The notes: generated by a model not told the origin, from the letters alone. A DNA stretch of 64,000 nucleotides from Candidatus Bathyarchaeota archaeon (GCA_963833125.1 CAWHWX010000001.1:1-64000); one strand, 5' to 3'. Shown: positions 9,654-58,155, counted from the stretch's first letter. Numbers and translations are program-made.

Positions 9654-9674
9654 AATCATTAGGTGAGATTATCG

Positions 9675-10829
9675 ATGCGTGTAGTCGGATTCATGTCAGG
9701 CACGTCCCTAGACGGATTAAGCATAGCATACGTGGAAATCGACGGGGCAAAACCACCCTTTTCATCAAAATTCATCGCGGGCAGAACATTTCCACTACCT
9801 GCCAATTTACGAGTACCCCTCCTCAAGTTAGCTCAGTCCGGAACTGTCACGTCACAAACTGTGGCAAACTGCAATCGTGAGTTGGGTATCCTGGCCGCCG
9901 ATTCATTAGAAATTTTGCTACGAGATCAGTCTTTGCAGCCACCAGAGCTAATTGGCTTCCATGGACAGACAATCTACCACCAGCCAAGTACCGATGGAAC
10001 GACAACATTACAGATTGGCGATCCATCGCCTCTTTGCTCTAGGTTCAATGTTCCAGTCGTATCAGATTTCAGGAGCATGGACACAGCCGTAAATGGACAA
10101 GGGGGGCCACTCGTTTCGGTCGTTGACTACCTCAAGTATCGCTCCGATAATGAGACGCGAGTAATTCTGAACTTGGGCGGGATCTCGAATTTTACAGTAC
10201 TGCCGCGGGGCTGCGACTTGGCTGGCGTCTTAGGTTTTGATGTAGGTCCCGCAAGCATCCTGATCGACGCCGTTGTTGACCAACTCACCCACAGTAAGTC
10301 AAAGTATGACGCTGAAGGTGAAATGGCATCACGAGGAAGCGTCTCGAAAGGGCTGCTTGACTCAATCATGCAAGCCGACGATTATCGATACCTGCCGTAT
10401 CCGAAGACGACCGGCCGCGAAAGGTATGGGCTCAGTGTCGTGGAGAAAATTCTGAACAAAGCAAAGGGGTTGAACTTAGACCCAGATGACATTGTGGCGA
10501 CGACGGCGTACTATACTGTGTTCATGATTACGTATCATCTCAAGAAACTCAAAGACAGTGGACTGACCCTGGATGAGTTGATTATTGGTGGGGGCGGTTC
10601 AGGAAACAAATATCTTGTTCAAGAGTTAAAACGGAACAATCCGGAATTGATTGTTAAATTCCATTCCGATTATGGGGTACCTTCAAGCTACTGGGAAAGC
10701 TATGCTTTCGCCGTACTCTCGTATCTGGCGCATCTCGGTTTTTCAGGAAATGTACCATCCGTAACAGGAGCTTCGAGACCCGTCTTGCTGGGCCGCACCA
10801 ATTTTCCTGCTGAACACATCCTCTCCTAA
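9675..10829 (+). CDS. anmK: Anhydro-N-acetylmuramic acid kinase
   Basis: GFMSGTSLDG, IGFHGQTIYH, DFRSMD...GQGGPL, LNLGGISN, FDVGP, PKTTGRE, GGGG and ESYAFA...GNVPSVTGA are all diagnostic AnmK motifs. Confidence 0.95.
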   Translation: MRVVGFMSGTSLDGLSIAYVEIDGAKPPFSSKFIAGRTFPLPANLRVPLLKLAQSGTVTSQTVANCNRELGILAADSLEILLRDQSLQPPELIGFHGQTIYHQPSTDGTTTLQIGDPSPLCSRFNVPVVSDFRSMDTAVNGQGGPLVSVVDYLKYRSDNETRVILNLGGISNFTVLPRGCDLAGVLGFDVGPASILIDAVVDQLTHSKSKYDAEGEMASRGSVSKGLLDSIMQADDYRYLPYPKTTGRERYGLSVVEKILNKAKGLNLDPDDIVATTAYYTVFMITYHLKKLKDSGLTLDELIIGGGGSGNKYLVQELKRNNPELIVKFHSDYGVPSSYWESYAFAVLSYLAHLGFSGNVPSVTGASRPVLLGRTNFPAEHILS

Positions 10830-10862
10830 TCCACGCACCGTACCGAACTAAGCCTAACATGT

Positions 10863-11972
10863 CTAGGTTATGGCTGCGATAACTTCGTTATGGAAATCCT
10901 GTAAGACATTAGTCCATGACGTGCGTCGACGCATCATTATACCAACGGACGCGTCCGAGCCAGGAATTCCTTCTCGAACTGGATGAATTCTATTGGTTAA
11001 TAGAATTATGAAGGCGTTCCTGACCTTGTCCAGCCAAATGGACGTCCCCGTGTAGCCGTTATGCCCGTAAGATCGAGGAGAAAGCCTTGACCCGACCGCG
11101 GGTGTCAATCGGGTTTTCACTCGCCATCCAAGACCGTAATTGGATCCCATATCGCTCGTATGGTTCTTTACCATCAGTCGAATGGTTCCTTTGTCAAGAA
11201 TTCGCTTTCCGGCATAAGTTCCGCCGTTAAGCATCATCATACAGAATATCGCCAGATCACTTGCAGTTGAGAAGAGACCTGCATGCCCGCTGACGCCGCC
11301 CATTGCGGCAGCGTTCTCATCATGCACCTCGCCCCTAATCATCCTAAACCTCCAGTTCGAGAATTCTGTAGCAGCCATGTTTTCAGCGGGCTTTGGTAGA
11401 AATGATGTGTGTTTCATTCCGAGAGGTATGTAAATTTCGTCTAATGCAAATTGGTCTAATGATCGGTTACTCGCTTTCTGAACGATCTCGCCCAGAATAA
11501 TGTAGCCCAGGTCACTGTAAGTGGCCCGTGTTCCCGGCGCCGACTGTAGAGGTATACCATTACAAATACTCCTGAGAATGGACGTCCTGCTGGCTCGAGG
11601 ATTTTCGTATAACGGTGCCCAGGCTGGCAGACCTGATGTGTGACAGAGCAGGTGTCTGACTCGAACCCTTTTCTTGGAGCCTTTTGAGAAGGAGGGAAAC
11701 AGATCAACTACTCTGGTTTCCAATTCTAACCGATTCTGTTCGACCAGAATCATGATGGAAGTTGCTGTGGCGACGACTTTGGTTACTGAGGCTAGATCAA
11801 ATAGAGTGTCGAGTTTGATTTCTTCTCGCTCTGGCAATATGCTGCTATAGCCAACCGCCTTATTCATGACCATTGATCCGTTAAGTCCAACGCAGGCAAC
11901 TGCGCCAGCATACGCATTTTGTTGTGAGCCATTTTCTATGATTTTAAATGCCGAATCAAGTTTTGGTGACAT
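10863..11972 (-). CDS. Beta-lactamase/class C-like serine hydrolase, AmiE (MurNAc-L-Ala amidase)-like by context
   Basis: FDLASVTK (SxxK), LLCHTSG, YSDLGY, RGEVHDENA, GHAGLFS and GHNGYTG. Immediately downstream of murQ, as amiE/ybbE is in the Bacillus recycling operon. No signal peptide. Confidence 0.8.
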   Translation of the reverse strand: MSPKLDSAFKIIENGSQQNAYAGAVACVGLNGSMVMNKAVGYSSILPEREEIKLDTLFDLASVTKVVATATSIMILVEQNRLELETRVVDLFPSFSKGSKKRVRVRHLLCHTSGLPAWAPLYENPRASRTSILRSICNGIPLQSAPGTRATYSDLGYIILGEIVQKASNRSLDQFALDEIYIPLGMKHTSFLPKPAENMAATEFSNWRFRMIRGEVHDENAAAMGGVSGHAGLFSTASDLAIFCMMMLNGGTYAGKRILDKGTIRLMVKNHTSDMGSNYGLGWRVKTRLTPAVGSRLSPRSYGHNGYTGTSIWLDKVRNAFIILLTNRIHPVREGIPGSDASVGIMMRRRTSWTNVLQDFHNEVIAAIT

Positions 11973-11990
11973 CTGCGCTTGTCCTCATCC

Positions 11991-12929
11991 TTATGAGAAA
12001 CTTCTAGCGCGTTTGCCCAGTTCGAGAGCTTTCTCGAGCGACCCGTGCGCTGTTTTGAGGAGTTTCCGTGCTGCTTGATAGCCCAAGTTTTCCCTGGCCA
12101 TGAGTATTGCGACGCGAACGTCCACTCGGGCCTCTTTGAGCTTTCTGAAAGCCGCTTGAGATTTCAGGCCAGTTTCCGTCGCGACAATCCTTGTTGCTCT
12201 CTCTATCAGCTTCCTGTTTGTGGGTCTTAGTCCAACCATGAGGTTTCCGTGAACTCTACCAAGTCTCAACATCGCTACTGTGCTGACCATGTTGAGTACA
12301 AGCTTCTGAGCGGTTCCCGCTTTCATTCTTGTCGACCCAGACAAAACCTCAGGGCCCGTCCTCGGGCAGATTACGATATGAGCGTAACGGAAAACCGTTG
12401 AGTGCGGATTGGACGTGAGCGCAATCGCTTCCGCATTACGAGCCTTTGCAAACCTGAGCGCTGCCGTTACGAATGGGGTGTTGCCACTCGCTGAGATTCC
12501 TAAAACTACGTCCCTCGAACATAACCCCATCTTCTTGAGCTGATCTACAGCTGACCGTTGGTTATCCTCCGCACCTTCAATAGGCCGGAAGGCTGCTCTC
12601 TTTCCGCCCGCAATTATCGCTCGCACGATTTCTGGGCCAGCACCGAATGTTGGGATGAGTTCTGAAGCGTCCAAGACGCCCAGCCGCCCACTCGTACCCG
12701 CACCCACGTAAATCAATCTCCCACCTTCCTCCAGACGCTTGACAATCTGAACGATGACTTTCGCAATTACCGGAATCTCTCTTCGCACTGCGTCGGGAAC
12801 TTGCCTGTCTTCATCGTTAATGATTTTGAGAATTGATTCGATGGGCAGAGAGCTCAACCTGCGTGTTCTTGGGTTACTCTCTTCTGTTGCAATTCGACCC
12901 ATGCGGTTTTTCGAATATTCCATAATCAA
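11991..12929 (-). CDS. murQ: N-acetylmuramic acid 6-phosphate etherase
   Basis: TEESNP, YVGAGTSGRLGVLDASE, EGAED, GISASGNTP, GPEVLSGSTRMKAGTAQKLVLNMVST and GNLMV...TNRKL. Both catalytic Glu residues are present. Confidence 0.95.
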   Translation of the reverse strand: MIMEYSKNRMGRIATEESNPRTRRLSSLPIESILKIINDEDRQVPDAVRREIPVIAKVIVQIVKRLEEGGRLIYVGAGTSGRLGVLDASELIPTFGAGPEIVRAIIAGGKRAAFRPIEGAEDNQRSAVDQLKKMGLCSRDVVLGISASGNTPFVTAALRFAKARNAEAIALTSNPHSTVFRYAHIVICPRTGPEVLSGSTRMKAGTAQKLVLNMVSTVAMLRLGRVHGNLMVGLRPTNRKLIERATRIVATETGLKSQAAFRKLKEARVDVRVAILMARENLGYQAARKLLKTAHGSLEKALELGKRARSFS

Positions 12930-17116: not shown

Positions 17117-18089
17117 CTATTTCTTAGGATTCACTGGATTCGGCAACGGTTCGCCTTTCAAGCCCGCAATGAGGTTCTCCGCGGCCATCATCCCCATCTT
17201 CGTTCTGGTCGTGACTGATGCGCTCGCAATGTGCGGCGCAATAACAATATTCTCCAATTTCAGCAGTGGGTGGTCGATGGGTATTGGTTCGGGTTCTGTA
17301 ACATCCAATCCAGCGTACGCGATCTTTCCGTCGCGAAGCGCCTCGTATAATGCCATGTTATCAACGATTGGGACCACGAGAGGTGTTGATGAGAATACAG
17401 GTTCGTTTCATCTTCTTGAATTGTTCGGGGCCGATTAGGTGGTGAGTTTCAGGAGTCAGATTCGTATGCAGCGTGATGAAGTCTGATTCAGCCAAGAGTT
17501 TTCCCATCTCCACGTACTCTAACCCTAACTCTTTCTCAGTTTGCGGCTGCTGCCTGATCACGTCGGAGTACATGATCTTCATTCCGAAGCCTTTCGCACG
17601 CCTTGCCACCGCCACACCGATCCTTCCCATACCAACTATTCCAAGAGTTGAACCAAACACATCTTGGCCAAGTAGAATCATCGGCCCCCACGTCTTCCAC
17701 TTGCCCGCACGCACGTTTCTGTCTCCTTCAGCGACACGTCGAGCCGCAGCCAACATTAACGCGAATGCGAAATCCGCAGTTGTTTCCGTCAAAACTCCAG
17801 GCGTGTTTCCAACCGCTATACCTCGTTTGGTGGCGGCGTCGACGTCTATGTTATCAAAGCCGACTGCGATGTTGCTGATCACTTTCAGCTTTGGTGCCTT
17901 GTCCATAAGCGGTGCGTCTATCTTATCGGTGAGCAGACAAAGCAGCCCCTCCACGTTGGCAATGTTCTCAATTATGGTGTCTCTGGGAGGAGGCAATTCT
18001 CCCTCCCATACCTTGGCATCACAATAGGAGTAGATTCGATCCATCGCAGGTTTCGGCAACAACCTCGTAACGTAAACTTTCGGCTTCAA
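17117..18089 (-). CDS. D-2-hydroxyacid dehydrogenase (glyoxylate reductase/D-glycerate dehydrogenase type), indel near 17370
   Basis: [44 protein letters not shown] and APHIAS. Confidence 0.9.
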
Positions 18090-19099: not shown

Positions 19100-20445
19100 T
19101 TAGGTGACTTCTTTGTCTGCTACTACGAGTGCTTTGTCGAGCGCGCTGACGCCTTCGTCTATTTGCTCTGGCGTAACTATGAGCGGTGGAGCAATTATCA
19201 TGCAATTGAGCCACGACATTACGTAGGTCCCATTCTTCATGCATTCCGCGGCGACTCGATCAACAACCATCGGTTTACCTTGAAGCTTATCTTCACGGCT
19301 GTTGAAGGGCTGCTTGGATTTTCTGTTCCGGACAAGTTCGAGAGACCAGAATAGTCCTAATCCCGCGTACATCGCCAACGGATGGATGCTTTTCTTGTAG
19401 AGCCTTCAGCTGCTTTCCAAGGTGTTGACCCATCGTCCGCGCACGCTCAAGAAGGTTCAATCGCTTGTACTCTCCAATTGCGGCAACCCCCGGCGCGAGT
19501 GTCAGAGGGTGGGCTTCGTACGTATGGCCGTGGGCGAAGTAATGCTCTTCGAAGTAGTCGGAAATTTCGCGTGTTGTGGCAGTAACGCTGAGCGGAACAT
19601 AGGCTCCCGTGATGCCCTTGGCGGTGGTTAGGATGTCTGGTTTAACCTTCCAGTGATTAACGGCGAACCACTCGCCGATTCTGCCCCAACCTGTCATGAC
19701 TTCGTCGCAGATTAGCAAAACTCCGTTCTGCTCCGTGATCTCTCGCAGAGCGCGGCAGATACTCGTCAGGAGGAACAATGACGCCATTGGCCCCTACTAT
19801 CGGCTCTACGATAACAGCCGCGACGTTCGACTCATGTTTAATCATGTACTCGATGTAGTCAGCGCAAACGATGCCACAGTCCGGATGCTCTAATCCGAAT
19901 GGACAACGATAACAGTAAGCGTCCGGTCCGAAGAGCACACCTTCCATTTTGCCGGCAGGTTCGATTGGATAACGGCGCGGATCTCCAGTAGCGGCTATGG
20001 AACCGGGTGTTGACCCATGGTATGACACATATCGTGAGATTATCTTGTACTTGCCCGTGAATAGCCTCGCAATCTTGAAAGCAGCTTCATTTGCCTCAGT
20101 CCCTGAAGTAGCGTAGAAGAACTTCTCGAGTCCAGGTGGCATAACCTCTTCCAGAGCTGATGTCAATCGTGCTCGCGCCTCAGTTGTGAAACCTGGTGCG
20201 ACGTAGGGCAGCTTCTTAGCCTGCTCACATATTGCCTCGATCACCGCTTTGTTCCCATGGCCTAGATTGCTACACATCAGCTGTGATGCGAAATCCAAGA
20301 ATCGTTGACCCGATACGTCAGTGAAGTAGCACCCTTCTGCGCTGACAATTTCCCGAGGAGTCCAACCCTTTTGCGCACGCCACGTTCCATACGTATGCTG
20401 CTTAGTTACATCTACGACATCATTTTTGTCGATTACTTGGACCAT
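19100..20445 (-). CDS. Class III PLP aminotransferase (taurine/beta-alanine:pyruvate-like), split by indels
   Basis: FLDFASQLMCSNLGHG, SGTEANE, SYHGST, EPIVGANG, DEVMTGWGRIG, TAKGIT, HGHTYEAHP and APPL. Confidence 0.9.
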
Positions 20446-20578
20446 TAGCTTCAGTCTCGCGCCTTCCAGGATTAATTTAAGCCTAATAGGGTTACTATCC
20501 AGTTCCTGCGTTAGAATTCTGGGCATCCAATAAGAACTACAAATCAATTACCAACCAAAATAGAATCAGTATCCATCG

Positions 20579-21628: not shown

Positions 21629-21776
21629 GATCTCAAACGACTTCCGAAATCCTGTTTCCACGCGCGGTGTTGAGCCGTCTAGGCAGAGTCGAAAAATGAT
21701 TGTTTTCTTTTATCGATTTGTAGGATTAGGGTTAATAAATCGCCGAACTTCACGCCGTCACTGCCGGCTAAATCAG

Positions 21777-23112
21777 ATGCAACTTACGGGACCGAAGATA
21801 ATCGTTGAGCCGCCTGGACCCAAGGCGAAGGAAATTATCAAGCGCGATGAAAAATTAACCTCTCCTTCCCTGACTAGAACAGCGCCACTTGTGGGCGTTA
21901 GGTCTGAAGGGGTTTGGGTTGAGGATATTGATGGGAATGTTTACTTGGATTTCGGATCTGGAATTGCGGTCTCAAATGTTGGTCATTCTCACAAGAAGGT
22001 TGTTGAAGCTATCAAGAAACAGGCGGATACGTGCGATCACATCAATAGCTGTGACTACTTTACCGTTCCCCAAGTCGAATATGCTGAAAAACTCCTGGCG
22101 AGGATGCCTGGTAACTTCACGAAGCGAGTTTTCTTCGGAAATAGTGGGGCTGAAGCGGTGGAGTGCGCGATTAAGATTGCAAAATGGCATTCCAAGAAGC
22201 CGTACCTGATCTGTTTCATTGGCGGGTTTCACGGACGAACGATGGGTGCTCTATCTCTAACAAGCACTTCTGCTGCTGCCAGAAAATTCTTCTTTCCGAT
22301 GATGCCTGGCGCCACGCACGTTCCCTACGCATACTGCTATCGATGCGTGTACGGACAGAGTTACCCGGATTGTGGAATGTGGTGCCTAAACTATATCGAG
22401 GAGGTAGTATTCAAGAAACTTGTTTCGCCTGACGAGGTTGCAGGGCTCATTGTAGAACCAATCCAAGGCGCGGGGGGTTACATCGTCCCGCCAAAGGAAT
22501 TTCTCCCAGGCCTAAGGAGAATATGCGAACAAGAACGGAATAATCATGATCGCGGACGAAGTCCAGACGGGGTTTGGTAGGACCGGCAAAATGCTTGCTT
22601 GTGAGCACTGGAATGTGATTCCAGATATCATATTGATGTCCAAAGCCATGGCAGGCGGACTCCCCATGAGCGCATGTATCTCAAGAGCCGAACTAATGGA
22701 CTGGGACCCTTCGGCCCACGAAAACACTTTGGGCGGGAACCCGATCGTCGTAGCTGCCGCGCTCGCTGTGCTCGATGTCCTTACAGAAGAGCGGCTGATC
22801 GAAAACGCGGAGAAGGTTGGAGCCTACATGCTCAAGAGATTTACCGAGATTATGGATGAATGCAACCTAGTTGGGGACGTACGAGGGAAGGGCATGATGG
22901 TAGGCGTTGAACTCGTAAAGGACAGAGAGACGAAGGAATACGCAACCAAGGAAAGAGACGACCTCATCCTCAGGACGTTCAAGAAAGGACTTCTAATTTT
23001 GGGAGCAGGACCATCTAGTGTTCGTCTTGCACCACCATTGATCACGACCACAGACCAAGCAGAAACTGGCATCCAAATATTCGAAAAAGAACTGAAGGCA
23101 GTCGCAAAGTAA
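21777..23112 (+). CDS. Class III PLP aminotransferase (GABA/acetylornithine-AT-like), indel near 22535
   Basis: PPGPKA, LDFGSGIAV, NSGAEAVE, GFHGRTMG, EPIQGAGG, DEVQTGFGRTG, SKAMAGG and TLGGNP. Confidence 0.9.
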
Positions 23113-27317: not shown

Positions 27318-28871
27318 ATGACAAATCAACCTGCGGCGTTTGTAAGAAAAGCTTCGGGACTTACGCAGAGACGTTTCCTTGTTAGATGTAGTCGGCCTGA
27401 ATATTGAGTAACATGTCAGGCGGCGCAGCCCTCGGAATCATCGGGTACACAATGGTATTGCTGTCATCAAAGCAGGAGTAAACCTGGTTTACGGCTCCAT
27501 AATCGCCTGGGCGATAACAATTCCAGAGGTCATTGTCTATACAATGATGACAACGAGGATCAGTCGAACCGGTGGCGATTATGTGTGGGTCTCACGAGTC
27601 TATGGCGGATTTTTCGGAGGAGCACTTTCATTCATGGGGTACACACTTGAGACCCTAGCCTATCTCGCCCTCATAGCGCTCGCAGCAGTAGTCGCGATTG
27701 GTTCTGTTGGCGTTTCACTTGGATACTCTAACATGCTTCCCCTCGCTTTGCCGGGTAGCGTCCCCGGCTCCAATCTAGCTGCGCAAGTCATTATTGCGGC
27801 GACTAGTCTTTGCTATTCTCATAGCAGTCAACCTCCTGAAGCCAAAGTAGGTTACAAGGTCGTTGCGATCACGAGTAATAATTGGAATCGCCGCAACTTT
27901 CGTAGGTAATTTTCGTACTTTTGGCTGCTGGGACGACTGGGCGTGCAAGGTTACATGAATTTTCTTAACTCGATCGGCGCCAACGCCACCTACACTTCGG
28001 TTTAATTGCCGTCTACTGCCCCAACGTTAGATTTAGGAGGCAACAATCTTCATGATGCCATTTTTCGCTATTTTCGTCTATCCATGGTTGAACGCCGGAC
28101 CAGCTGTTGCTTCCGAGATTAAGGGCAAGGGCGCTCTGCGATACAATGTCGTGATTTCGTCGGTTGTAACCCTCATAGTAGTGACCAGCGCGTTCGCAGC
28201 CATGTATTACGCTGGCGGATTACTACTTCATCAATGGCGCATTAGGTAATCGCAAATCTCGTATACAATTGGACTTTCAATTCTGGACTCTCGCAATGGG
28301 TGTCGCACAAATCACGCCATTGCTTGGTTCATCGGCTTCGGTTGGGTTCTATGGAATGTTGCCGTTTTAGCTTACGGAATCATCGTTCTCTCACGATACT
28401 TCTTCACGCAGTCATTCGATAGATTCCTACCAGAGAAGATATCATATATAAGCCCGAAGACTAATTCGCCCTCCATCGCATTACTGATCGAACTCGTCGG
28501 AACAATTGTTTTGATTGCATTCGCTTCGTTCTTCTACGGGAGCTTAGAAGCACTCTATGGAGCCATAGTCGCATCCATGGTCTACTTCCTCTTCATAGGA
28601 ATAGCCGCCGTACTATACGCCCTCAAGAACGAGAAAGGACAACCTAAGGCAATCCTGAATACAGCAGGGACTTTGATGGCGATCGTTTTTGCGATACCTC
28701 ACATACCAGTTCCTCGCCTATTCCAGGAATATGGGGAGGAAACCACTTGCGTACGGATAGGCCGCGGGTAGCTTCATCGCTGGACTCATAATTTACCAGG
28801 TGTCGAAATCATACCACGCCAAGCGAGGAATCGACATCACTCTAGCATACAAGGAATTGCCACCACTATAG
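27318..28871 (+). CDS. APC amino acid permease, copy 1 (many indels: low-quality read segment or pseudogene)
   Basis: Aligns end to end with 41160..42704: MTNQPAAFVRKASG, RTGGDYVWVSR, WLNAGPAVASEIKGKGALRYNV and GIDITLAYKELPPL*. Confidence 0.85.
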
Positions 28872-28976: not shown

Positions 28977-30341
28977 CTAGCGGAAACGAATTCCCAGCTC
29001 TTCCAACTCTTTTCTCACTTCGTCGTACTTGCTGCTCCATTCTTGCAAGGGTTGGATTGTTTTCAGATCATAACATTCCTGAAACGACTTACCTCTGTCG
29101 GGATTACTCAGCTTGTCTTCATATTTCGGAAGTAACTTTTGCAGAACCTCGTTGGCTTTCTCTCGTTTCATCCCCGCAGTCGCGTGCGCAACCTCTCCCA
29201 AGAGTCTAACCTCCAGTCCCGTATTATGATCGGGCACTTTGCCACCTGTAGCGCCGACACCTTCCGTTTGCATCCCTGCGACAGAGCTCACCATTGAATT
29301 ACACGCGACTTCGTACAACAGTTCTTTAGTTGAAGGACCATGGGAACAGTAACAGTCCTCAAAACTGAGGATATTCGTATTTCGCGAGAGCTTGGCCGAC
29401 CACGGCCTCAGCCCACAGCCCCCACCTATTTGCGTTATTCAGAAATTTTATGTGGGTATGACTCATGTGGTGGAAGTCCGCGTGATATAATACGGCACCT
29501 ACCAAGTGCTCCGCGATGGTGACGATCGCAAGTCCTTCGGGACCTGGTGCATATCCCCCGATTATTGGAGTCATCAAGTTATAGATAGAAGCTCCATAAT
29601 CAAGGAGAAACGCTGTCATCGAAAGATGATCATAGTCAACCTTCATCTCGTTCATCTGGGAAACCAGAATCCCATCTGTGGGTCGAATACCACTTACAGG
29701 ATCACAAGAGCAGATTTTACCTTGGGAAGTCAGCCCCGCAGCATCATCGGCAATATGCAGACCAGGTCGACCGACCCTATGTAACGCCTCCCGAGCCCAA
29801 AGGATGGCGCTTCGCACTGATAGGATCTCGAGAGGTGAACCTGTGCAAGGATTCTTTCTCCTCTGATTGTTTGGAGGGACCCTGCTTGGAAAGCATCCAC
29901 AACTGGTTCCTGAGCAATGCTTTGTTCGTTCTTCACATAGAGTTCACCTTCTGAAACCAACGTTCCAGTCGGTCCGCCCAGAATCATCGGCGGATTGCGA
30001 TCCTCTACAGTACGCTTTCTCACTACTCTGGAATCTCGGCCAGCACCCAACGTGAACTTCAGTGGGCAAGTATCGTAGCACTTCTTTGACTTCGCTCTCG
30101 CTAAAATACGATACGTCTACTCGTGTCCATACAAAGGGCACCCAAGTCACGGAAGAGAATGAAACCAGACCAGGTATACATCATCAATGAGACTATTATC
30201 GGTTGGAACTGAATTGGCTAAAATAGTACTTTATGCCGAATTACTTTCATTAGTGACATGGTCTTCGTGGTGACAATGGAATCGAAGTCGGTTGCTTTGC
30301 AGAAAGGGCCACTCATCGCTCTTTTCAGATACTTGAATCAT
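28977..30341 (-). CDS. mtmB: Monomethylamine:corrinoid methyltransferase MtmB homolog without pyrrolysine, several indels
   Basis: Fragments SGPFCKATDFD, VPTDNSLIDDVY, GGPTG, GRPGL, VSQMNEMKVD, PIIGGY, TGLEVR...EVAHATAGMKREKANE and GKSFQECYD follow MtmB in order. Confidence 0.85.
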
Positions 30342-31469
30342 CCTGTTTGACGTTACTCGCCCACTTATGGAAAATAGCACGCGCCACTCATCGATGCAGT
30401 TTTGTTTTACTTGTAAAGGTTTTGTCGATTTTCTCATGTCTGTTATCAAACCACATCTCGCTAGCAAATGACCCATACGACTTGAAGCATCCATTCTTCA
30501 CTGCGTTATCTCTCTAATGAAAATTTAATTCTAAATAATCTATTCATAAACAAAAGACGCGGGGATAAGCGACGTTTTCCAGTCTAGTTTACAGATTTTG
30601 CGAATTTCATTTCATCATCCCCTTTTATGGTCATCTCAATCTCTGTCTCGCCCCAATTTATGATGCGCGCAGAACCTATCGCGGGGGCTTACACTCGGTT
30701 GTCAATTTAATTGTCCGATACTCAGAGGAACATCATCCTTAGTACTCTTGATTTCAAGTCGTAGGTGTTGTTGGGAGGCAATGATTAAACCCTACGAGGA
30801 CCGTTCCACTATCAGGTCTATTAGTGTCCCACCCGGCAATTTTCTTAATGTAGATGTCAGTGGTTCGAGATACTGTCGCAGATGCAACGTCACATACAGC
30901 ATGAAGTGTGCGATGCCAATTCAGGAAAGCCTTGTGGCCCAAGAACAACTTTTAAGCTTCTTCCCTCGTGCAGCACTTAACTTATCGCGGAACAGAACGG
31001 AGACCGGCTCCCAAGAAGAATCACGTTTGGATCGGTTTCGAACCTTTTGACTTAATACTGTGTTCCCAGACTTCGTGACCAACTATGCAGTCGTCCAGTG
31101 TGATTACTAACAGCGGTTTTGAAGGATGCCGTAGACTGGACGAATGATTAAGCGCAGAGGACAACCTGACGGTCCAAAACCAACTTCGCCCATTCATTAA
31201 CGAACTCCAATCCCGCAAAACCAGTGGCTGCGCAAGCTTCTTGTTCCATGCGAAGTCATCACCGACTTTGTTCAGAGTTCTGCACTAAGCACACATTATC
31301 AATGCCACTAATCACAGTCTAGCTTCGAGATTGCAGCGTTGACTGTGTTCAGTGCCCAACCGCTCTTTGAGTTCCACGCCATTCTTGGCACAAGATTGTT
31401 GAAAAAGACGTGTGTCTAATGCAGGCACACTGCATAAGACGTGCTGGAGCTGTCTTCGGGATACCTTTC

Positions 31470-33365
31470 TCATTGTTTGGATAGTTCAACTGCATCCCTG
31501 TGCGGAATGTACAGACTGTTGAAGAACTCTCTTTGGAAGTCTGGATCCGCGGCGAGTTCAACGTCTTCCAGCATTCCCGCCACTTTCAGGGCTTCCACGA
31601 GTTTTTCCTTAGAGAGTAGGCACATTCGTGCGCCTGAGCCAGCGGTATTTCCGGCGAATGATATGCGTCCGAGAGGTATGTCGGGGTACATACCGATCGT
31701 GCGTGCGCTATGCGGGTCCACGTAGGTCCCGAAGGCTCCTGCTACAAACAGTTTCGTGATATCGTCGATCCGAACCTTGAGGCGCTTTGTCAAAACGACG
31801 ATTCCAGAATAAGATCGCTGCCTTAGCCAACTTGATCTCCTCGATATCTCGTTGAGTTATGACAATGTCTCGACCTGTCTGAGTTTCATTCACCGCGCGA
31901 GAACGTACTCTCCCGAACCATTTACTCTTCTAAACCGCTTTGAAACAGTTTTCGGGTCGATTCGTCCCTCTAAGTTGATTATTCCAGTCCGGCGCATGCT
32001 TCGCGATGGCATCAATTACGCCGGAACCGCATATTCCTCTAGGTTTCGCTTCGCCTATAGTGCTGTACTCCGCCTCTAGGGTAGTAGGGTCTACCCATAC
32101 TCTTTCGATGGCTCCGACCTCAGCTCGCATCCCATGTTTGAGCTGTGCTCCCTTCAAATGCAGGGCCAGATGGTGAGGAGCAGGCAATCATTCGTTTCTC
32201 ATTTCCTAGAACTATTTCAGTGTTCGTGCCGATATCAACAAGGAGTTCCAGATTAGGCGACGTGTGTATTTGGGTCGCCAGGACGTCAGCGACGGCATCT
32301 GCACCGACGAAGCCAGCTACGTTGGGAAGAGCGTCAAGGAGGCAGCCCCGAATTGGCAATGATTCCCACTTCACTCGCATAGGTCCTAAAGGGCGCACAG
32401 AGAGCGGGCGTGTACGGAGCTAGCGCCACGTACTTTGGCGACGATGCCTAGAAAGATGTAATGCATTGCCCGTATTGCCAACGATTCTTGACCACCTGGA
32501 AGACCTCTTAAGGTTCAACGCGCAAGGCCTGTGCACAACACTCCTGAATAAGCGAGTTTGTCGCTTGAACGACTTTCCCTTGCAATTCGATAAGTTCGTT
32601 AGGTCCATTCGAAACGTATGAGATTAGAGAGATTACATCGCCCGCAGAATGCGACCTGCGGATTTGGTCATGGAAGCGTTGGCTACGACGATTCCCGAAG
32701 TCAGGTGGATTAAATCATCCCCGGCTAATTTTGTCGTTCCTATGTCTACGGCAAAACTCGTAAACCAGTCAGTCAGTTCGCCCTGCGTCAATCCAGGTGA
32801 TGAGTCTGTCCCCAGATACGGTAACCGTGACGTCCCATTCGCCTTTACGGATGGCCTACTGGCAGCTGCTTGAGGGCCGCATATCCAAGCTGCAATCCTG
32901 GAAGAGCACACTCCACCTGCATGACTTCGATAACTCTCTCAAAGTCACCTCTGAAATCTCTTAGCGAGGCCCGGCAGTTTGATGAAGTGTTTTTGGACAA
33001 TCGGCGACAAGTCGACTTTCGGTTGGATTCCAGCGACTAGGAGCTGATGCGCTTCGGTGAGACTTTCAGGCGGGATATGAACGGTGATTGGAGCAGCGGC
33101 AGTAATCTTGGCGCAACATGCAATCCTAAATCCTTGTTCAATGTCCTGCCCAGAGAGTGACATTCGCTCCAGGTCCGTTATTGGCGATACGTTCTCTGAT
33201 CCCGATGACACCTCAACTCGACACTTGCCGCACACGCCTCGCCCCGCACAGACGTTTGAGACCTGGAGTTGGGCTGCAAGTGCAGCGTCAAGCAGTGTTC
33301 TGCCCATCGCCACCTTCACGGTGTCGTTCTTGCGCCGGAAATTCTACCTCGGCTTCTGGTGCCAT
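31470..33365 (-). CDS. ASKHA-domain corrinoid reductive activator (RACo/RamA-like) with N-terminal 2Fe-2S domain, many indels
   Basis: CAGRGVCGKC...C ferredoxin, AVDIGTT, GFVGADA, LVDIGTNTEI, GPAFEG, GICGSG, ITQRDIEEI.LAKAA, AGAFG and GNTAGSGA. Confidence 0.88.
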
Positions 33366-33506
33366 TGATTCTGTAGTCACTTATCCAACTAGTTCAACTC
33401 GAATCCTGTTAAGAGCATTTCGAAGTTTCGTTGGAACCCTATCCTCGATTCGACCCTGAGAATTGCGGAGCCTAGAGACGATTAGACGGCTTCATAGCAT
33501 TATTAT

Positions 33507-34572
33507 TTATTTACTATGCAATTTCCGGGCGGGCATTCTTATTTCTTCAATCGAACGGTTTTGTATTTTCTTGGATTGTTTATCGAGTTTCAGAGGCGGT
33601 GCGTTTTCTTGTAGAGCCTTCACTGCCTGTATGAATGTCTTGATACTGTCTGTAGGTGTTGATGAAGGTAAATTGCACCCAAAGCTTGCAACTAAGTTTT
33701 CAGTTCCACCTCCGGCCGTTAGCATCTGTGTGACGTTTGTCCGAATCGTTTCAGGTTTCTCAACTGACAGATTAGTCGGAGAATAATTTCCAAAAACCAA
33801 CACATCACTTGGCACTGCTTTAATGGCGTCAGAGAGTGAGACGGTCTGGTCGATACTAATCGCCGCCACGCCCGTTTCACCCATTTGTTTAAGGAGATGG
33901 TTCACGCGCCCACAAATGTGTAAGATGATGTCTGTGGAAACTGCCTCCGCCACAAGACTTAGTGGGGTTTTGGCGAACTGCTCAAAGTGGCGCGGCGAAA
34001 TCAGGCTCGACGACATGTCTGCCATCACAAGAAAATCCACCCCCGAGTCTCCTAGGCGTTTAGCATAATCAACCACAGTTTCGGTGCAGTCCGCAATCAA
34101 TTTCGAAATTACAGCTTCGGAGCGTAGAAGCCCTAGCAACAATTGCTGAACGCCAAGAATCTGGCTAACTAACGTAAATGGGCCTGTCACAAAGAAACCT
34201 GTGGGAACATCCTTCACTTGCTGTGAAATCTGCTTTGCCGCCTCGACCATCGATGACATTCTGTCGGTGCGCATCTGATGCAGTGATGCTGTGACGCTGT
34301 CGAGGGGCACATACGTCCTGATCTCCGGCGGGTCATAGTCGCTGAATAAGGGATTGAGACCGTATGACTCAGCTTCAACTGTTAGGTCCATGAGAGAGAT
34401 AACCGCATCAGGTTCGAATTGTCGAAGATTACTCCGAACTAGTTCAGCGTGAAGCCTAGGGTCATGGAGGCATTGCTGCGCAGTTAACCCTCCCGTTTTG
34501 AGGCCCGCGATACCCCAAGATTGGAACAACGCCGAACCGATCTAACGAGCTGAAATAATCACGCAGCGTCAT
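33507..34572 (-). CDS. Uroporphyrinogen decarboxylase-family methylcorrinoid methyltransferase (MT2, MtaA/CmuA-like), indel near the 5' end
   Basis: DLTVEAESYG, GPFTL, SLISP, LHICG (Zn ligands H-x-C), SIDQ, FGNYSP and FGCNLP. The true start MTLRDYF is at 34572. Confidence 0.8.
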
Positions 34573-34590
34573 ACTCGCTTCGCCGTCATG

Positions 34591-36004
34591 TCAGATATTC
34601 AGCCCATATTCCTCTGGGACAAACGTTTGGCCCCAATTTTTCTTGATCTCCGGCTCTAACTCTTCGGGGGTTTCAGGCATTGATGCAAGCGCCTTCTCAA
34701 TTCGAGCCAACCATTTGCTTTCTGCAGCACTTGTCGAAAGCAAATTCTTGTTGGTGGCATCTCGCATTGTGCTGCATGCGGAATTGGCCGCCTTCAAAGT
34801 TCGTGCGTAGTCGTCCGATTCACTCACTATAGCCTTAGCTAATGGGAAGCAGATGTCCGGGTCGAGAAAGAGAGCTTGTGGATCCCTATAATGGTCGGAT
34901 TCAATTAGCAGATTCCGAAGAATTTTCGACTGCCGAAGATCGTGCGCGGTGTTCATGAGGCGACAGTCGTAGATAAGCATCTCAGTGCACACCTCGGGCG
35001 CCTGGCCCCCTAACAGCCTGACATTCTGGACCGACTCATTGGTCCAAAGGTCACAGACCGCGGACGCAATATTCCCCAAAGGTGAAGAATGCGCGCAGGC
35101 AGCAGACTTTCCCTCCATAGCAATCGGTACTCCTGCAATGATTTTCATTACGGGGTTCTCGTAACCGCAATCCTCCCCGGGACCAACAGCTCCTTCCTCA
35201 AACGCACATAACGTCCTCACGGCCGACACTGCTCGCACAAACGCCGCCAACACACGTGGGATGTAGTTCTGATGTGCGAGCTGCATGGCAGTGTTGGCGA
35301 ACACGCAGGCTGAGTCTCCACCGCCTAAAATGTTGTGTCTCGTGGTAATGTCGGTGACGTGACGCCAAAGATATCTCATGTCGCTGCAGGCGAGAACGCC
35401 TAGACTGTAAAGAATCGCAGTCACGTCCCCGCGCATTATGGCCTTGTCGAAAAGTTCCTTACCCCCAGTGCTCTCGATAGATAGAATATCGGCGCCTGAT
35501 GCGGCGCACTTTTCCATTGACTCCATAATCTTCTTGAAGCCTTCCCCCGTCCGCATTCTGGGTGGCCGCTCTGCTTCCCTCACATCGGCCACCGTAACTC
35601 GAAGCGCTGACATCAAACCATGCTTCCTGTGCGCTTCTTCGATAATCGATTTCATCTGCCGTGTAATTTCTGCGCCCCACTCCGGATGAGTTGTCAATTC
35701 GTAAAGGTGCTCAAACTCCAAAGCTAATGCAGGACAACCCAGCTGCGTTGCCTTCGCTAGTACCCCTTTTGACATCTCTTGGTACTGATGTTGGACCTCG
35801 TTCCAAGTAGAGGGTCCAATTGACATTGTAGGCAGCGTGAAGTCAACTTCAGGTAAAACCGTCCCTCCACCTATGGTCAACCCAAACCCTGCGCTGGACT
35901 GGGTTTGGAGCCACACCGAAGATGATGTCGTCCGGGGAGTCATATGACAAGCTACGGAAGCGTCGCTTAGGCTCTCGCGACTCCTTAGCCGCCGGAACTT
36001 GCAA
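34591..36004 (-). CDS. mtaB: Methanol:corrinoid methyltransferase MtaB (acetogen-type), indel near 35897
   Basis: FRSLSYDSPDDIIFG, IGGGTVLPEVDFTLP, PEWGAEI, GADILSIESTGGKE, GGDSACVFANTA, DCGYE, EGKSAACAHSS..GNI, WTNESVQNVRLL and DPQA. The Zn ligands Glu/Cys/Cys are present. Confidence 0.92.
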
Positions 36005-36273
36005 ATCGCATCGAGTCTCAAATCCAACCCGGTCACTAATAGCAAGCGCGTATGCAACCTACTTTTGCCAACAAGTTAACCAGCCTGCGCACTCCGACTG
36101 TCTCGATCATGGGCTACTTATCTAACGACAACTTTGAGATGAGCAGCAATGGATTTGCAGAATCCCCATTATGTAATGGTGGCATATTGCAGAAGTCGAG
36201 AGCATAGTCAGTGGACGTTGTGGTCGAAAATGACCATGCGGGCTATCCAGCACAAAGCTTCGACTGCTTTTTC

Positions 36274-36930
36274 TCAGTCGATCTCCAGAGATTTCATAGC
36301 TCTAGAAACGGCCGTGACGGCGTCCGGCGCGGAATCATCGGCACCAATCTCGTGCGCCCACTCTTGGGTAACTGGTGCTCCACCAACCATAATCTTCAGG
36401 CCGGACCGTAACCCTCTTTCAGTGAGCGTCTTGATAACCTCTGCTTGCTTCACCATTGTCGTTGAAAGCAGCGCTGAAAGTCCTAGTATGTTGGGTTTCA
36501 ACTCTTCGACTTTTTTTACGAAGACTTCTGTGTTAACGTCGCAGCCCAGGTCGTAGACCTTGAAACCATTCACCTCAAACATTGTAGCCACAATGGTCTT
36601 TCCGATGTCATGAATATCTCCTTCCACGGTACCAATCACTACGATCCCGACGTATTTCCGCTCCACTTTCGCTTTCCTCAACTCGGGCTCGATCACTTGT
36701 AGACCATTCTTCATGGCCTCGGCCGACATCATCAGATCTGTTAGGTAGGCTTCCTCTTTGCCGAATCTGTCTCCAACAATCATCAAACCCTTGGTTAAGC
36801 CTTCATTGAGTATTCTGACTGGGTCCATTCCAAGACTGACCAGTCTGGTGGTGAGTTCTTTGGATTTGTCAATGTCACCGTCTGTGACTGCCTGAACGAG
36901 TTCCGCAACGAGACCGTTCGTATCCGGCAA
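36274..36930 (-). CDS. Corrinoid (B12-binding) protein, MtaC/MtmC type
   Basis: Cap domain, GTVEGDIHDIGK (DxHxxG), SALLSTT and MVGGAP. Co-oriented upstream of mtaB. Confidence 0.93.
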   Translation of the reverse strand: MPDTNGLVAELVQAVTDGDIDKSKELTTRLVSLGMDPVRILNEGLTKGLMIVGDRFGKEEAYLTDLMMSAEAMKNGLQVIEPELRKAKVERKYVGIVVIGTVEGDIHDIGKTIVATMFEVNGFKVYDLGCDVNTEVFVKKVEELKPNILGLSALLSTTMVKQAEVIKTLTERGLRSGLKIMVGGAPVTQEWAHEIGADDSAPDAVTAVSRAMKSLEID

Positions 36931-37113
36931 AGTGTTTCCAGGGACTTATTTCCGACGAGGGTTGATAAACCTGTTTTCCGTCTCGCAGGGTTTGAATCTT
37001 CCTTACCTTGAAATTGTCGATGAGTCAGTCGCCTACTTAGTCGGCAAATCCGATGTGGTAACATGTCGCAAAGTTTTATGGGTGCTTCCAGAAATTGCTC
37101 CTCGGCTAGGAAT

Positions 37114-37760
37114 TTGCGATCTACTGAAGAAATCCTCGAAGACCTCAGAATCGCCGTCGTCAGCTATGACAGAGATCTTGCGATTAGAGTTGCCGAAGAA
37201 GCTCTGAGTTGTGGCATAGATCCCCTAAGGGCGATGGAGGAGGGGCTAGCCAAGGGAATAAAAGAGATTGGCTCCAAATTTGGCACAGAATGTTTCCTGT
37301 CGGATCTGATGATGGCAGCAGACGCCATGAAGGCGGGCGTTACCGTGCTCGAACTCGGGAATGAAAAACGATGAAAAAGAGCGGAGCGTGGGAACAGTGG
37401 TCATTGGAACCGTAAAGGGCGATATACACGATATCGGCAAGAACCTCGTATCAACTATGCTCGGTCAATGGTTTCAAGGTAATGGATCTGGGAGTCGATG
37501 TCCCTTCGGAGGCATTCATCCACAAAGCCGAAGAAGGATCAGCCAACATCATAGCAGTCTCATCTTTGCTATCAACGACCATTGCCTACATGGAAGACTT
37601 GATCCATCTTATGCGAGACCTCGGCTGCAGAGACAAGTACAAAGTTCTCGTTGGCGGAGGACAAGTTACCGAAGAGTTCGCGAAAGAAATAGGCGCAGAT
37701 GGCTACGGAGAAGAAGCGGCACAGGCTCCGGTCATAGCCAAGCAGCTCCTAGGGAAATAG
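37114..37760 (+). CDS. Second corrinoid protein, divergently transcribed, two indels
   Basis: GLAKGIKEIG...FLSDLMMAA, GTVKGDIHDIGKNLV, DLGVDVP, SSLLSTT, LVGGG and IGADGY. Confidence 0.9.
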
Positions 37761-38012: not shown

Positions 38013-38977
38013 ATGCTCGATGATCCGGTTCTTGTAAATGATTGGCATGTGGTGGCGTTTTCGAAGATATACAGAAAGATAGAACGTCTGCCGCGTCTCC
38101 TGAGGGAGGACCTTGTTCTATGGCGATGTGGAGGTGAAGTCAAGGCCTGGCAGGATCTGTGCGTTCATCGTGGAACTCGCCTATCTCTAGGCTGGATCAA
38201 GGACCAGACACTCACTTGTTCATATCATGGCTGGACTTACGATGATTCGGGTAAATGCATACGCATACCAGCTCATCCGGATCAAAAACCTCCTCTGACG
38301 GCCAGAGTCAAAACATACCAGGCTAAGGAGCGGTACGGGTTTGTCTGGGTCTGTTTAGGAGAACCGAGGGCGGATATCCCAGAGATTCCTCAGTTGGACA
38401 ACCCGAGCTATACAAAGATCTTCTGCGGTCCATACCGTTACAAAGCTAGCGGTCCTCGTGCGATCGAGAACTTCTTAGACGTTCTGCGCATTTTCCATTT
38501 GTACACGAAGGACTTCTTGGTGACCCAAGGCATCCAGAAATCGCGGATTATGAACCAGTGATCGAACCGAACGGTGTTACGGCCAAATCCATTTCAGTGT
38601 GGCAGCCAGATCCCGATGGCACAGGACAGCCCGCGGTAGTCACCTACACTTATCGTGTGCTACGTCCTTTGACGGCGTATTTGGCGAAGGAGTCTGGGGA
38701 GAACCGGTACACCCTACTTATGATCGTGACGCCTGTGGACGCAGTCGATAGTATCGCATGGATGCTGATTGCGACTAACTACGCTCACGATCAGGTTGAA
38801 CAACTTAGGAGTTTCCAAAATAAAATCGTAAGTCAAGATGTCCCGGTGGTAGAATCTCAGCGGCCCGAACTTCTTCCTCTCGACTTACAAGCTGAGCTGC
38901 ATCTACGATCGGACCGAATGTCTATCGCCTATCGGAAATGGTTGAGAGAGATCGGTCTTACGTTCGGCACCGGGTAA
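38013..38977 (+). CDS. Rieske non-heme iron oxygenase alpha subunit (VanA/NdmA-like demethylase clan), indels
   Basis: DLCVHRG...CSYHGW Rieske motif, ENFLD..H mononuclear Fe site, QD...VESQRP and DRMSIAYRKWL. Confidence 0.88.
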
Positions 38978-56558: not shown

Positions 56559-57035
56559 TTGCGGGTTGAAAAGACAGTGAATTTCAAACTCAACAGGGAG
56601 CCTGTTACTGTCAAGTGTCCCCCAGCTTACACTTTGCTTGAAGTCCTCCGCGAGGAACTCCACGTTACGGGTCCAAAGGAAGACTGCGCCAAGGGAGAGT
56701 GTGGAGCATGCACCGTAATCAAGGACGGTGTACCCGTGTGTTCATGCCTCGTGCTCGTTTCACAAGCCGAAGGATCTGAAATCATAACATCCGAGGGACT
56801 CGTTAAGGACGAAAGATTGAACTCGGTTCAAGAGGCTTTCCTGAATGAAGGAGCAGTGCAATGCGGCCACTGCATCCCAGGCATGATCGTCTCCGCCTCC
56901 GCCCTCTTGATGCACAACCCGCACCCAACAATAGATGAGATTCGCACTGCCCTCTCGGGTAACCTCTGCCGGTGCACGGGTTACTCAAAGATCATCACAG
57001 CTGTTCAGGAGGCCGCGAAGCTGCGGAGGCGTTAG
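56559..57035 (+). CDS. Xanthine dehydrogenase/CoxS-family 2x[2Fe-2S] small subunit (complex 1)
   Basis: CAKGECGAC...CSC and QCGHC...NLCRCTGY. Confidence 0.95.
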   Translation: MRVEKTVNFKLNREPVTVKCPPAYTLLEVLREELHVTGPKEDCAKGECGACTVIKDGVPVCSCLVLVSQAEGSEIITSEGLVKDERLNSVQEAFLNEGAVQCGHCIPGMIVSASALLMHNPHPTIDEIRTALSGNLCRCTGYSKIITAVQEAAKLRRR

Positions 57036-57043
57036 AATCGTTG

Positions 57044-57923
57044 ATGCGATCTGAAGTTGACGTACTAACGCCCAGAAACCTCGACGAAGCACTGAATATT
57101 CTCCATGAAAACCGGAGTGGGCTTAAGATTATCGCGGGAGGTTCTGATGTTATTGTTCAACTTAGGGACGGCGTCATCAAAGCGAATGAACTCCTCAACA
57201 TATTATCAATCAAGGAACTGAGATTTGTAAGAAAAGACAAGGATCGAATCCACATCGGAGCACTCGCAACCTATAGCGACATCGTTCACTCTCAAGCAAC
57301 CCGGGACCATGCTTGGCCCCTAGTGGAAGCGGCAAGACAGATTGGAGCAATTCAACTTCAAAATACAGCAACTATAGGTGGCAACCTAGGGAATGCTTCA
57401 CCGGCAGGTGACAGCCTACCCCCACTCTACGCCCTCGACGCAGTTGTAGTCACACGAAGCAAGATAGAAAGACGTGAAATTCCAATCGAAAAATTCTTCC
57501 TAGCCTACAGAAAGACCACGCTCAAGCCTGATGAATTAATCGAGCAAGTATACTTCGACGCTCTAGGTGAACAGGACCGAGGAGCGTATGTGAAGCTTGG
57601 ACTCCGCGAAGCGAACGCAATCTCAATCGTGGATGTGGCAACCGTATTGAGGCATAGGGGCAAGAATGAAACGTTTGCTGAAGCGAGGGTTGCTTTGGGA
57701 GCAGTCGCGCCTAACATTCTACGGGCCAGAGAATGTGAACGCGCCTTGACGAACAAACCCTTGAACCAAGAGATCTTGAAGAGTGCCGGATCTCTCGCGG
57801 CCGACGATGCTAAACCGATAGATGACATCCGGGGGTTCAGCTCAGTACAGAAAAGAGGTTGTAGCTTCCCTCGTGTTCGAGGCGTTAAACCAGGCGCTCT
57901 ACAGGAAGAAGTGGGATGAGTAG
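57044..57923 (+). CDS. XDH/CoxM-family FAD-binding medium subunit (complex 1), indel near 57835
   Basis: AGGSD, ATIGGNLGNASPAGD, GAVAP and PIDDIRG, with S..YRK in the shifted frame. Confidence 0.93.
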
Positions 57924-58155
57924 GCGGTTGCTGGTCAAGGTCAAGGTTTTCGGTGCCCCATCTCTCGCACTCGAAAGAAAGGAACTTATTCTCGAATTGA
58001 AAGACAACGCAACAACCGAAGACCTACTTCAATCACTACCCGTCAAAGACAAGGATTACCTGTACGTTGTTCGCGAAGGTATCCGGCTAGATTCCAAATC
58101 CAAGATCAAGGACGGCGACGAAATCCTAGTCGTCCCACCGATCGCAGGGGGTTGA
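57916..58155 (+). CDS. MoaD/ThiS family ubiquitin-like protein inside the XDH operon
   Basis: 79 aa ending IKDGDEILVVPPIAGG. Confidence 0.9.
   Translation: MSRRLLVKVKVFGAPSLALERKELILELKDNATTEDLLQSLPVKDKDYLYVVREGIRLDSKSKIKDGDEILVVPPIAGG

Follow-up and report, generated by a model that had tools for sequence, protein, structure and literature searches.

A predicted corrinoid-dependent methyl-transfer gene cluster with MtaB and a non-pyrrolysine MtmB homolog in a Bathyarchaeia lineage that carries a terminal oxidase

The first 64,000 nucleotides of contig C1 (CAWHWX010000001.1:1-64000) in the Candidatus Bathyarchaeota archaeon assembly GCA_963833125.1 (G000; 3.07 Mb, 39 contigs, 87.8% complete, 7% contamination), hereafter the window, contain a cluster of genes predicted to encode a corrinoid-dependent methyl-transfer system (Table 1). 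Based on translation and family scans, the minus strand encodes, in reading order, corrinoid protein 1, the methanol:corrinoid methyltransferase MtaB, a UroD-family protein, an activase, an open reading frame (ORF) of ~200 aa and a homolog of the methyltransferase MtmB. The original prediction, made from the DNA alone, had listed six components (two first methyltransferases, MT1; two corrinoid proteins; one UroD-family second methyltransferase, MT2; and one ASKHA activator) and quoted four peptide strings from MtaB; translation and Pfam/family scans located all six components, and the four strings occur in the MtaB translation. The ~200-aa ORF, an APC-family permease and the frameshifts, one or more in nearly all of the cluster genes and also in MtaB, are additions to that description. 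Six-frame family searches of the whole genome detected MtaB, MtmB, the RACo-type activase and an MT2-like UroD protein as single copies, all of them in this cluster, and the two corrinoid proteins of the cluster were the only B12-binding_2 proteins; the other UroD match is a HemE-like gene (410 bits) at 245 kb, and MttB was not found by the same searches.

Table 1. Genes of the cluster, their positions in the window and the results of frameshift-aware alignment to proteins of relatives.
Product	Position	Strand	Basis and remarks	Reference	Identity	Frame changes
APC-family amino-acid/amine permease	~27339-28771	+	Beyond MtmB; read in several frames; frameshift-aware alignment	L014 permease	34%	~9
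Non-pyrrolysine MtmB-family MT1 (predicted)	28977-30341	-	PF05369 on three fragments	P0277, P0279 (452 aa)	93.1% over 451 aa	8 (7 of one extra base, 1 of two bases); 0 in-frame stops
Conserved ORF, ~200 aa, no assigned function	~30780-31306	-	Between activase and MtmB	L013:3098-3703	43.5%	at least 6
RACo/AcsV-type ATP-dependent corrinoid reductive activase	31484-33365	-	Fer2, Raco_middle, RACo_C_ter	P0241, P0245 (623 aa, same 90% cluster)	~90% over 620 aa	14 (13 of one extra base, 1 of two bases); 2 apparent in-frame stops
UroD-family methyltransferase (presumed MT2)	33507-34572	-	PF01208, 191 bits	L002 MT2	67.4%	1 secure, near the N-terminus (~34509)
MtaB methanol:corrinoid methyltransferase	34591-36004	-	PF12176, 518 bits	P0001, P0122, P0126 (471 aa)	~94%	1 (extra base, ~35896)
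Corrinoid protein 1 (MtaC-like)	36274-36930	-	B12-binding and B12-binding_2
Corrinoid protein 2 (presumed MtmB partner)	37055-37760	+	Divergent; three frames	L009 corrinoid gene	65.8%	3

In the called ORF of MtaB the match to PF12176 covers profile positions 25-460 of 460, and the N-terminus was recovered in another frame. In alignments with all relatives the match of this ORF (488 aa) started no earlier than residue 54, because the frame change removes the true first 37 residues. A Glu and two Cys residues of the protein align with E164, C220, and C269 of Methanosarcina barkeri MtaB (2I2X), which we take to be the Zn ligands (numbering checked on the 2I2X alignment). The score against the methanogen MtaB equivalog NF040651 (442 bits) is below its cut-off (720), and M. 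barkeri MtaB itself gave 340 bits, compared with 545-567 bits for named matches from bacterial metagenome-assembled genomes (MAGs) of SAR202 and Armatimonadota at 57-58% identity. The best match (95% identity) is named Candidatus Bathyarchaeia, and a further homolog (L002, 82% identity) lies on a Bathyarchaeia MAG contig and was the sole locus obtained when genome contigs were scanned with MtaB. More distant named matches belong to Anaerolineae, Dictyoglomaceae, Nitrospinota and Sumerlaeaceae. There is no classical acetogen among these named bacterial matches. In a FastTree phylogeny of 114 of the best 120 hits (six rows shorter than 420 aa were dropped, and the set held neither acetogen nor methanogen sequences), the relatives of the window protein formed a clade of 23 rows with an SH-like (Shimodaira-Hasegawa) support of 100, and every named member of this clade is from Bathyarchaeia; the rows that bear bacterial names, 13 in total (SAR202, Armatimonadota, Anaerolineae, Dictyoglomaceae, Chthonomonadetes, Sumerlaeaceae, and Nitrospinota), all fell outside it. 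On present evidence "acetogen-type", the term applied to this MtaB in the original prediction, does not appear to be the best label for its sequence. MtaB is sparsely distributed: among the 41 genomes searched it was detected in three, namely G000 and two of 22 other members of the genus, and in none of the 18 genomes elsewhere in the order.

Corrinoid protein 1 scored 218.9 bits against TIGR02370, above the cut-off of 215.3, and its translation contains the DxHxxG motif (GDIHDIGK). The UroD-family protein, for which URO-D (PF01208) was the only curated family with a score above the cut-off, remained below those of the MtaA/CmuA family TIGR01463 (127.4 vs. 235.4 bits), MtaA_Meth (129 vs. 400) and MtbA (97 vs. 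600). Its HxC...C motif (LHICG, GC) aligns with that of M. mazei MtaA (4AY7), and we presume that these residues of UroD/MtaA proteins are Zn ligands. The protein is presumed to be an MT2 by its position, because the order MtaC-MtaB-UroD also occurs in L002, the locus that encodes its reference in Table 1.

The first fragment of the activase contains an N-terminal plant-type 2Fe-2S domain (Fer2, E = 5.7e-11), and other fragments match Raco_middle (PF17651) and RACo_C_ter (PF14574). The reconstructed protein is colinear with the 623-aa orthologs, which carry PF17650, PF00111, PF17651 and PF14574, and the gene ends directly after the ASKHA domain. A full-length relative (L024) aligned with positions 2-627 of 632 of the AcsV model at 517 bits (cut-off 800), and with positions 1-411 of 534 only of the RamA model TIGR04270 at 122.6 bits (cut-off 500). 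With an N-terminal 2Fe-2S domain and without the C-terminal 4Fe-4S part, the architecture is that of RACo rather than RamA, as had been proposed originally. RACo was detected in 18 of the 41 genomes.

The three fragments of the MtmB homolog together cover positions 89-450 of PF05369, and the reconstructed protein is colinear with its intact references, which are annotated as monomethylamine:corrinoid methyltransferase. At the position of the pyrrolysine Pyl202 of M. barkeri MtmB the protein has Ala, and homologs in relatives have A, I, H, V, Q or L. Since the window protein and its relatives carry sense residues at this position and 26 of the 27 near-full-length matches in relatives have no internal stop, the window protein is a non-pyrrolysine MtmB. 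Reading of in-frame stops as pyrrolysine or other recoding was rejected, as the breaks are frame changes and not TAG codons and the pyrrolysine position is occupied by Ala. MtmB was found in 13 of the 41 genomes. Corrinoid protein 2, which was scored against TIGR02370 only as two fragments, also has the DxHxxG motif (GDIHDIGK) and is probably the partner of MtmB, because its closest match is a corrinoid gene that lies divergently beside MtmB in the relative G002 (L009:2935-3654). The permease gene resembles an AA_permease gene located after MtmB in the relative G020 (L014:2968-4236); at this level of identity both its ends and its count of frame changes are uncertain. The presence of an APC permease beside MtmB in both genomes would fit a charged nitrogen compound. 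The ~200-aa ORF has its counterpart downstream of MtmB in another relative (G012), and in close relatives the gap in accession numbers between RACo and MtmB fits one gene at its position; a profile scan assigned it to no Pfam family, and an Atlas search with the relative's protein gave nothing usable (scores up to 0.86, TM up to 0.43, pLDDT 0.34).

The archaeal origin of the host, assumed in the original prediction, was confirmed by an archaeal rRNA operon and by the best MtaB and RACo matches; the closest RACo and MtmB orthologs are named Candidatus Bathyarchaeia. Whereas the original prediction noted the lack of mcr in the window, this can now be extended to the assembled genome, where PF02249 (MCR_alpha/McrA) had no match and the control genomes were detected. 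Profile searches of this 87.8%-complete genome, in which the control search for each one-carbon (C1) marker family detected the expected reference genomes, did not find MtrH, the acetyl-CoA synthase CdhC, FTR, MCH or FTHFS. ComA was not found either, a weak result as the control M. acetivorans also had no ComA match. Genes of folate-linked C1 metabolism are present: a MetF/MTHFR gene (342 bits) adjoins MetE-like genes, and FolD adjoins a formiminotransferase-cyclodeaminase (FTCD). In two other places (L028, C23:43697-47260; L029, C22) a GcvT-family aminomethyltransferase lies beside a short MTHFR-like gene and FAD-dependent monooxygenase genes, the monooxygenase of L028 being read in three frames; this group is possibly a folate-dependent demethylase module.

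G000 also carries the heme-copper oxidase subunit COX1. A comparison with 40 relatives, 24 in the host family (f1) and 16 in other families of the order, indicated that these traits extend beyond one genome. CdhC was found in one of the 24 genomes of the host family, several of which are 96-100% complete, compared with 9 of 16 in the other families, and COX1 in 23 of 24 compared with one of 16, the latter below the cut-off. Because CdhC occurs in only one family genome, the absence of acetyl-CoA synthase (ACS) is a trait of the lineage and not a gap in one MAG. The available part of PMC10321748 (Hou et al., 2023) describes a soil genus of Bathyarchaeia without the tetrahydromethanopterin (H4MPT) pathway and with cytochrome c oxidase. 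The pattern of the host lineage matches that account, by description and not by genus name.

As assembled, MtmB, the activase, the ~200-aa ORF, the permease and corrinoid protein 2 are split into many short ORFs. A frameshift-aware protein-to-DNA aligner written for this analysis, with proteins of relatives as references, located ~30 frameshifts in the cluster, nearly all of them single extra bases (Table 1). References for corrinoid protein 2, MT2, the ~200-aa ORF and the permease were more distant than those for the activase, MtmB and MtaB, and two further frame changes suggested by the alignments, one at 33614 near the C-terminus of MT2 and one at 36923 near the N-terminus of MtaC, were not counted because they depend on 4 and ~20 poorly aligned residues, respectively. 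In the activase, MtmB and MtaB taken together, 21 of the 23 frame changes consist of one extra base, and this one-directional pattern is a technical rather than a mutational signature. Intact MtaB (471 aa), RACo (623 aa) and MtmB (452 aa) proteins belonging to the same 90% clusters are encoded on contigs of 780,901 and 3,074,791 bases, and the accession numbers of the relatives, with RACo two and MtmB four places after MtaB, fit the gene order of the window. The products deposited for the window itself include a 481-aa MtaB and a 120-aa fragment of the activase.

These sites were also compared with sequencing runs. Each of 24 runs contained 0.05-0.10 of the sampled words, and Logan contigs from four of them, the only runs drawn on here, were aligned to the window. 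Runs X1 and X2 yielded 14 short contigs near-identical to it, 13 with 0-2 substitutions per 140-200 bases and one of 322 bases with 13 substitutions. Twelve of the 14 fall within regions with close references, and all twelve show the number of gaps predicted by the frameshift map: none at 29482-29651, 29613-29763, 31472-31662, 33733-33894, 33903-34044, 36176-36326 and 36309-36459, one at 29914-30065, 33283-33478 and 37233-37431, two at 31774-31924, and five at 30002-30324. The remaining two (30791-30950, 4 gaps; 30592-30745, 3 gaps) cover the ~200-aa ORF and a spacer, where the map is incomplete. Contigs from X3 and X12, which are ~90-92% identical to the window, span the cluster with its gene order unchanged, and among the 12 listed of the 80 indels in the run comparison, single-base omissions at 30216, 30243, 31000, 31156 and 31811 coincide with mapped frameshift sites.

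Elsewhere in the assembly, COX1 (C12:135377-136687, on the rRNA contig; L035, L036, L040) is read in three frames in G000 compared with one frame of ~495 aa in 14 genomes of the same genus, which is a further sign of patchy indel errors. Four loci of the window outside the cluster were also found broken: a class III aminotransferase in two ORFs (21696-23112, +), an FMN_dh gene without approximately the first 107 positions of the Pfam profile (2635-3384, +), and a truncated 2-hydroxyacid dehydrogenase (17361-18089, -) and second aminotransferase (19293-20547, -); these are probable additional frameshift errors. A uniformly error-ridden assembly was considered and rejected, as stop-to-stop ORFs with a minimum length of 150 aa cover 78% of the genome compared with 37% of the 28-32 kb bin; the errors are patchy. 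The breaks in the cluster are assembly indel errors and not decay, because intact orthologs exist, the extra bases run in one direction, short-read contigs do not contain them and COX1 is split likewise. With respect to true pseudogenization, a concern expressed in the original prediction, the short-read contigs and intact orthologs show that the genes are not truly pseudogenized.

Altogether, we consider it rather probable that the cluster forms a corrinoid-dependent methyl-transfer island that is complete in itself and comprises two substrate modules, and that its host belongs to a soil/peat lineage of Bathyarchaeia with a terminal oxidase but without MCR, Mtr and ACS. The RACo-type activase would restore the Co(I) state of the corrinoid proteins at the expense of ATP, with an electron supplied by its 2Fe-2S cluster. 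MtaB would methylate the Co(I) of corrinoid protein 1 with methanol, and the non-pyrrolysine MtmB homolog would transfer a methyl group to corrinoid protein 2 from a methylated nitrogen compound imported by the adjoining APC permease, by analogy with MtqB possibly a quaternary amine. The single UroD-family enzyme would pass the methyl group to the C1 carrier of the cell. Judging from the presence and absence of genes, tetrahydrofolate would be the most likely acceptor, because the genome contains MetF, FolD, GcvT-like, FTCD and MetE-like genes and searches of it detected none of MtrH, Pterin_bind, Ftr, Mch and ComA. The most economical reading of these gene sets is that tetrahydrofolate receives the methyl group, which would then be oxidized via MetF/FolD or assimilated and would lead neither to methane nor to Wood-Ljungdahl acetyl-CoA synthesis.

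Several points weigh against this proposal. The assignment of the acceptor is weak, since the underlying inventory of present and absent genes comes from a genome that is incomplete and has 7% contamination; a search of G000 for Pterin_bind, the family of DHPS, found no protein, so that de novo folate synthesis is less well supported; the UroD protein is under every curated MtaA/MtbA/CmuA cut-off, and its conserved Zn site fits a thiol acceptor equally. The substrate of the MtmB homolog is a guess, and function as a whole is predicted from sequence. With respect to the integrity of the genes, a TGA at 32771 and a TAA at 32510 in the activase are not explained by single extra bases, and if both stops are real the activase is dead in this strain. 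Frame changes amount to ~6 per kb in 27.3-33.4 kb compared with ~1 per kb in 33.5-37.0 kb, and the assembly may derive from the sample of X1 or X2, so that these runs are not necessarily independent populations. It could be argued that the locus is a decaying remnant of which MtaC, MtaB and MT2 alone survive, the genes for MtmB, the activase, corrinoid protein 2 and the permease being true pseudogenes. In line with such decay are the concentration of breaks in some genes, the two activase stops, the patchy occurrence of MtaB in the genus and, in the relative G002, a 124-aa ORF after MtaB (L006:11968-12342) that matches only positions 387-495 of 500 of the MTTB profile and is possibly a true remnant of a trimethylamine-type methyltransferase. 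We regard decay as quite improbable nonetheless: at the predicted sites the extra bases are missing from short-read contigs almost identical to the window, the intact orthologs at 90-94% identity have accession numbers that fit the same order, the frame changes carry the technical signature described above, the broken genes are about as conserved (90-93% amino acid identity) as MtaB (94%), and COX1 is broken in the same manner.

For an intact cluster, the alternatives concern the destination of the methyl group. The UroD enzyme could methylate a thiol (coenzyme M (CoM), another low-molecular-weight thiol or homocysteine) and not a pterin, in a detoxification or biosynthetic route. Conservation of the H-x-C...C Zn motif relative to the CoM methyltransferase 4AY7 points in this direction, as do the best curated family matches of the protein, which are CoM methyltransferases, and the failure to find MtrH or a Pterin_bind methyltransferase in the genome; we nevertheless hold a thiol acceptor to be unlikely, though well worth keeping in mind, considering that the CoM-methyltransferase models score far under their cut-offs, that folate C1 enzymes are present and that genome searches detected neither McrA nor ComA (with the weakness of the ComA control already mentioned). 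Methylotrophic acetogenesis, with methyl groups entering the Wood-Ljungdahl pathway, which the original prediction had suggested along with oxidation, has been proposed for other Bathyarchaeia having the H4MPT pathway, as described in the available parts of PMC10321748 and PMC11264602, and a genome that is just 87.8% complete leaves some room for it. That suggestion was not sustained here: CdhC, FTHFS, FTR, MCH and MtrH were not found in G000, CdhC is nearly absent from a family with several almost complete genomes, the family carries COX1, and a soil genus without the pathway and with cytochrome c oxidase has been described (PMC10321748, available part), so that acetogenesis appears very improbable for this host. 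It is harder still to believe in a cryptic methanogen or alkanotroph with its MCR in the unassembled 12% of the genome; incompleteness and the mcr-like genes of some Bathyarchaeia (PMC10321748, available part) speak for it, and the failure of genome searches to find MCR_alpha, MtrH and H4MPT enzymes, together with the terminal oxidase of the lineage, speaks against it. Beyond transfer to tetrahydrofolate as the preferred reading, a broader scenario can be put forward tentatively, as a possibility that we would not yet favor: demethylation of methanol and methylated amines in an oxidase-bearing soil archaeon without MCR or the Wood-Ljungdahl pathway, in which the divergent UroD enzyme loads tetrahydrofolate or an undescribed thiol and oxidation feeds (micro)aerobic respiration. 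If true, archaea would have an equivalent of the CmuAB logic of aerobic bacteria, and their corrinoid-bound methyl groups would have a third possible destination.

Among the neighboring genes, Rieske 2Fe-2S and VanA_C oxygenase domains are encoded on two overlapping ORFs (38013-38977, +) directly after corrinoid protein 2. These probably represent one frameshifted Rieske-type demethylating monooxygenase, with weak best curated matches (SdmA and GbcA models), and an O2-dependent demethylase adjoining a corrinoid demethylation cluster is suggestive. Two CoxSML-like gene sets (xanthine dehydrogenase family) occur at 56559-64000 (+), and in the relative G012 such a set lies directly 3' of MtaC-MtaB-MT2 (L002:3797-7424). 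At 9663-12929, genes for an AnmK-like anhydro-MurNAc kinase, a beta-lactamase-family protein and a MurQ-like SIS protein lie together; this group, in an archaeal genome, resembles the sets by which bacteria recycle or scavenge peptidoglycan.

Published work has already put forward non-methanogenic methylotrophy for Bathyarchaeia (PMC10321748, available part); the less expected aspect is the context of an oxidase-bearing host without ACS. The analysis places a complete methanol module and a non-pyrrolysine MtmB module in such a branch of the class, which lacks acetyl-CoA synthase and where acetogenesis as the usual explanation does not fit. Bathyarchaeia are abundant in soils and peat, and whether they use methanol and methylated amines without producing methane bears on the reading of C1 fluxes in these environments. 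The cluster also provides specific genes with which candidate methyl acceptors can be tested. In addition, since the apparent pseudogenes of the cluster are assembly indels, calls of gene loss or "decay" in this assembly need read-level checks.

Corrinoid methyltransferase systems without MCR have been reported in Bathyarchaeia, and the available portion of Hou et al. (2023; PMC10321748) assigns mtmB and mttB to seven orders and mtaB to two Jinwuousiales MAGs only, and ties methylotrophy to the H4MPT Wood-Ljungdahl pathway and acetogenesis. Non-methanogenic methylotrophy and methyltransferase systems without MCR in this group are likewise published in PMC11264602, as far as the accessible part of that article extends. 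The non-methanogenic methylotrophy proposed for Bathyarchaeia (PMC10321748, same portion) and Brockarchaeota embodies the same idea as the window cluster, which differs from the systems of that study in a host lineage without ACS and with COX1. Compared with MtaABC of Methanosarcina (2I2X; 4AY7), three protein families and the MtaC-MtaB-MT2 logic are common to both, and the equivalents of the MtaB Zn ligands and the HxC...C motif of MT2 are kept. The window proteins score lower than the methanogen equivalog cut-offs for MtaB (442 vs. 720), MtaA (129 vs. 400) and MtaC (127 vs. 420), their corrinoid protein is of the short MtgC/MtbC-like type, no MCR was found in the host genome, and the activase is RACo-type instead of RamA-type.

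For the amine module, the nearest parallel by description is MtqB/MtqC, in which a non-pyrrolysine MtmB homolog also has its own corrinoid protein. According to the available part of PMC13044021, MtqB of Methanococcoides methylutens Q3c, acting on tetramethylammonium and choline, is the first non-pyrrolysine MtmB with a demonstrated function, and its authors consider most others to be of unknown function; MtqB works with a CoM methyltransferase in a methanogen. Bacterial RACo is distinguished from methanogen RamA, which has two C-terminal 4Fe-4S clusters, in the accessible part of PMC8630106. The window activase has in common with bacterial RACo/AcsV the N-terminal 2Fe-2S domain, the linker, the middle domain and the C-terminal ASKHA domain, and departs from AcsV in the sub-cut-off score of its relative L024 (517 vs. 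800) and in its location, which adjoins the MtaB and MtmB modules instead of CoFeSP.

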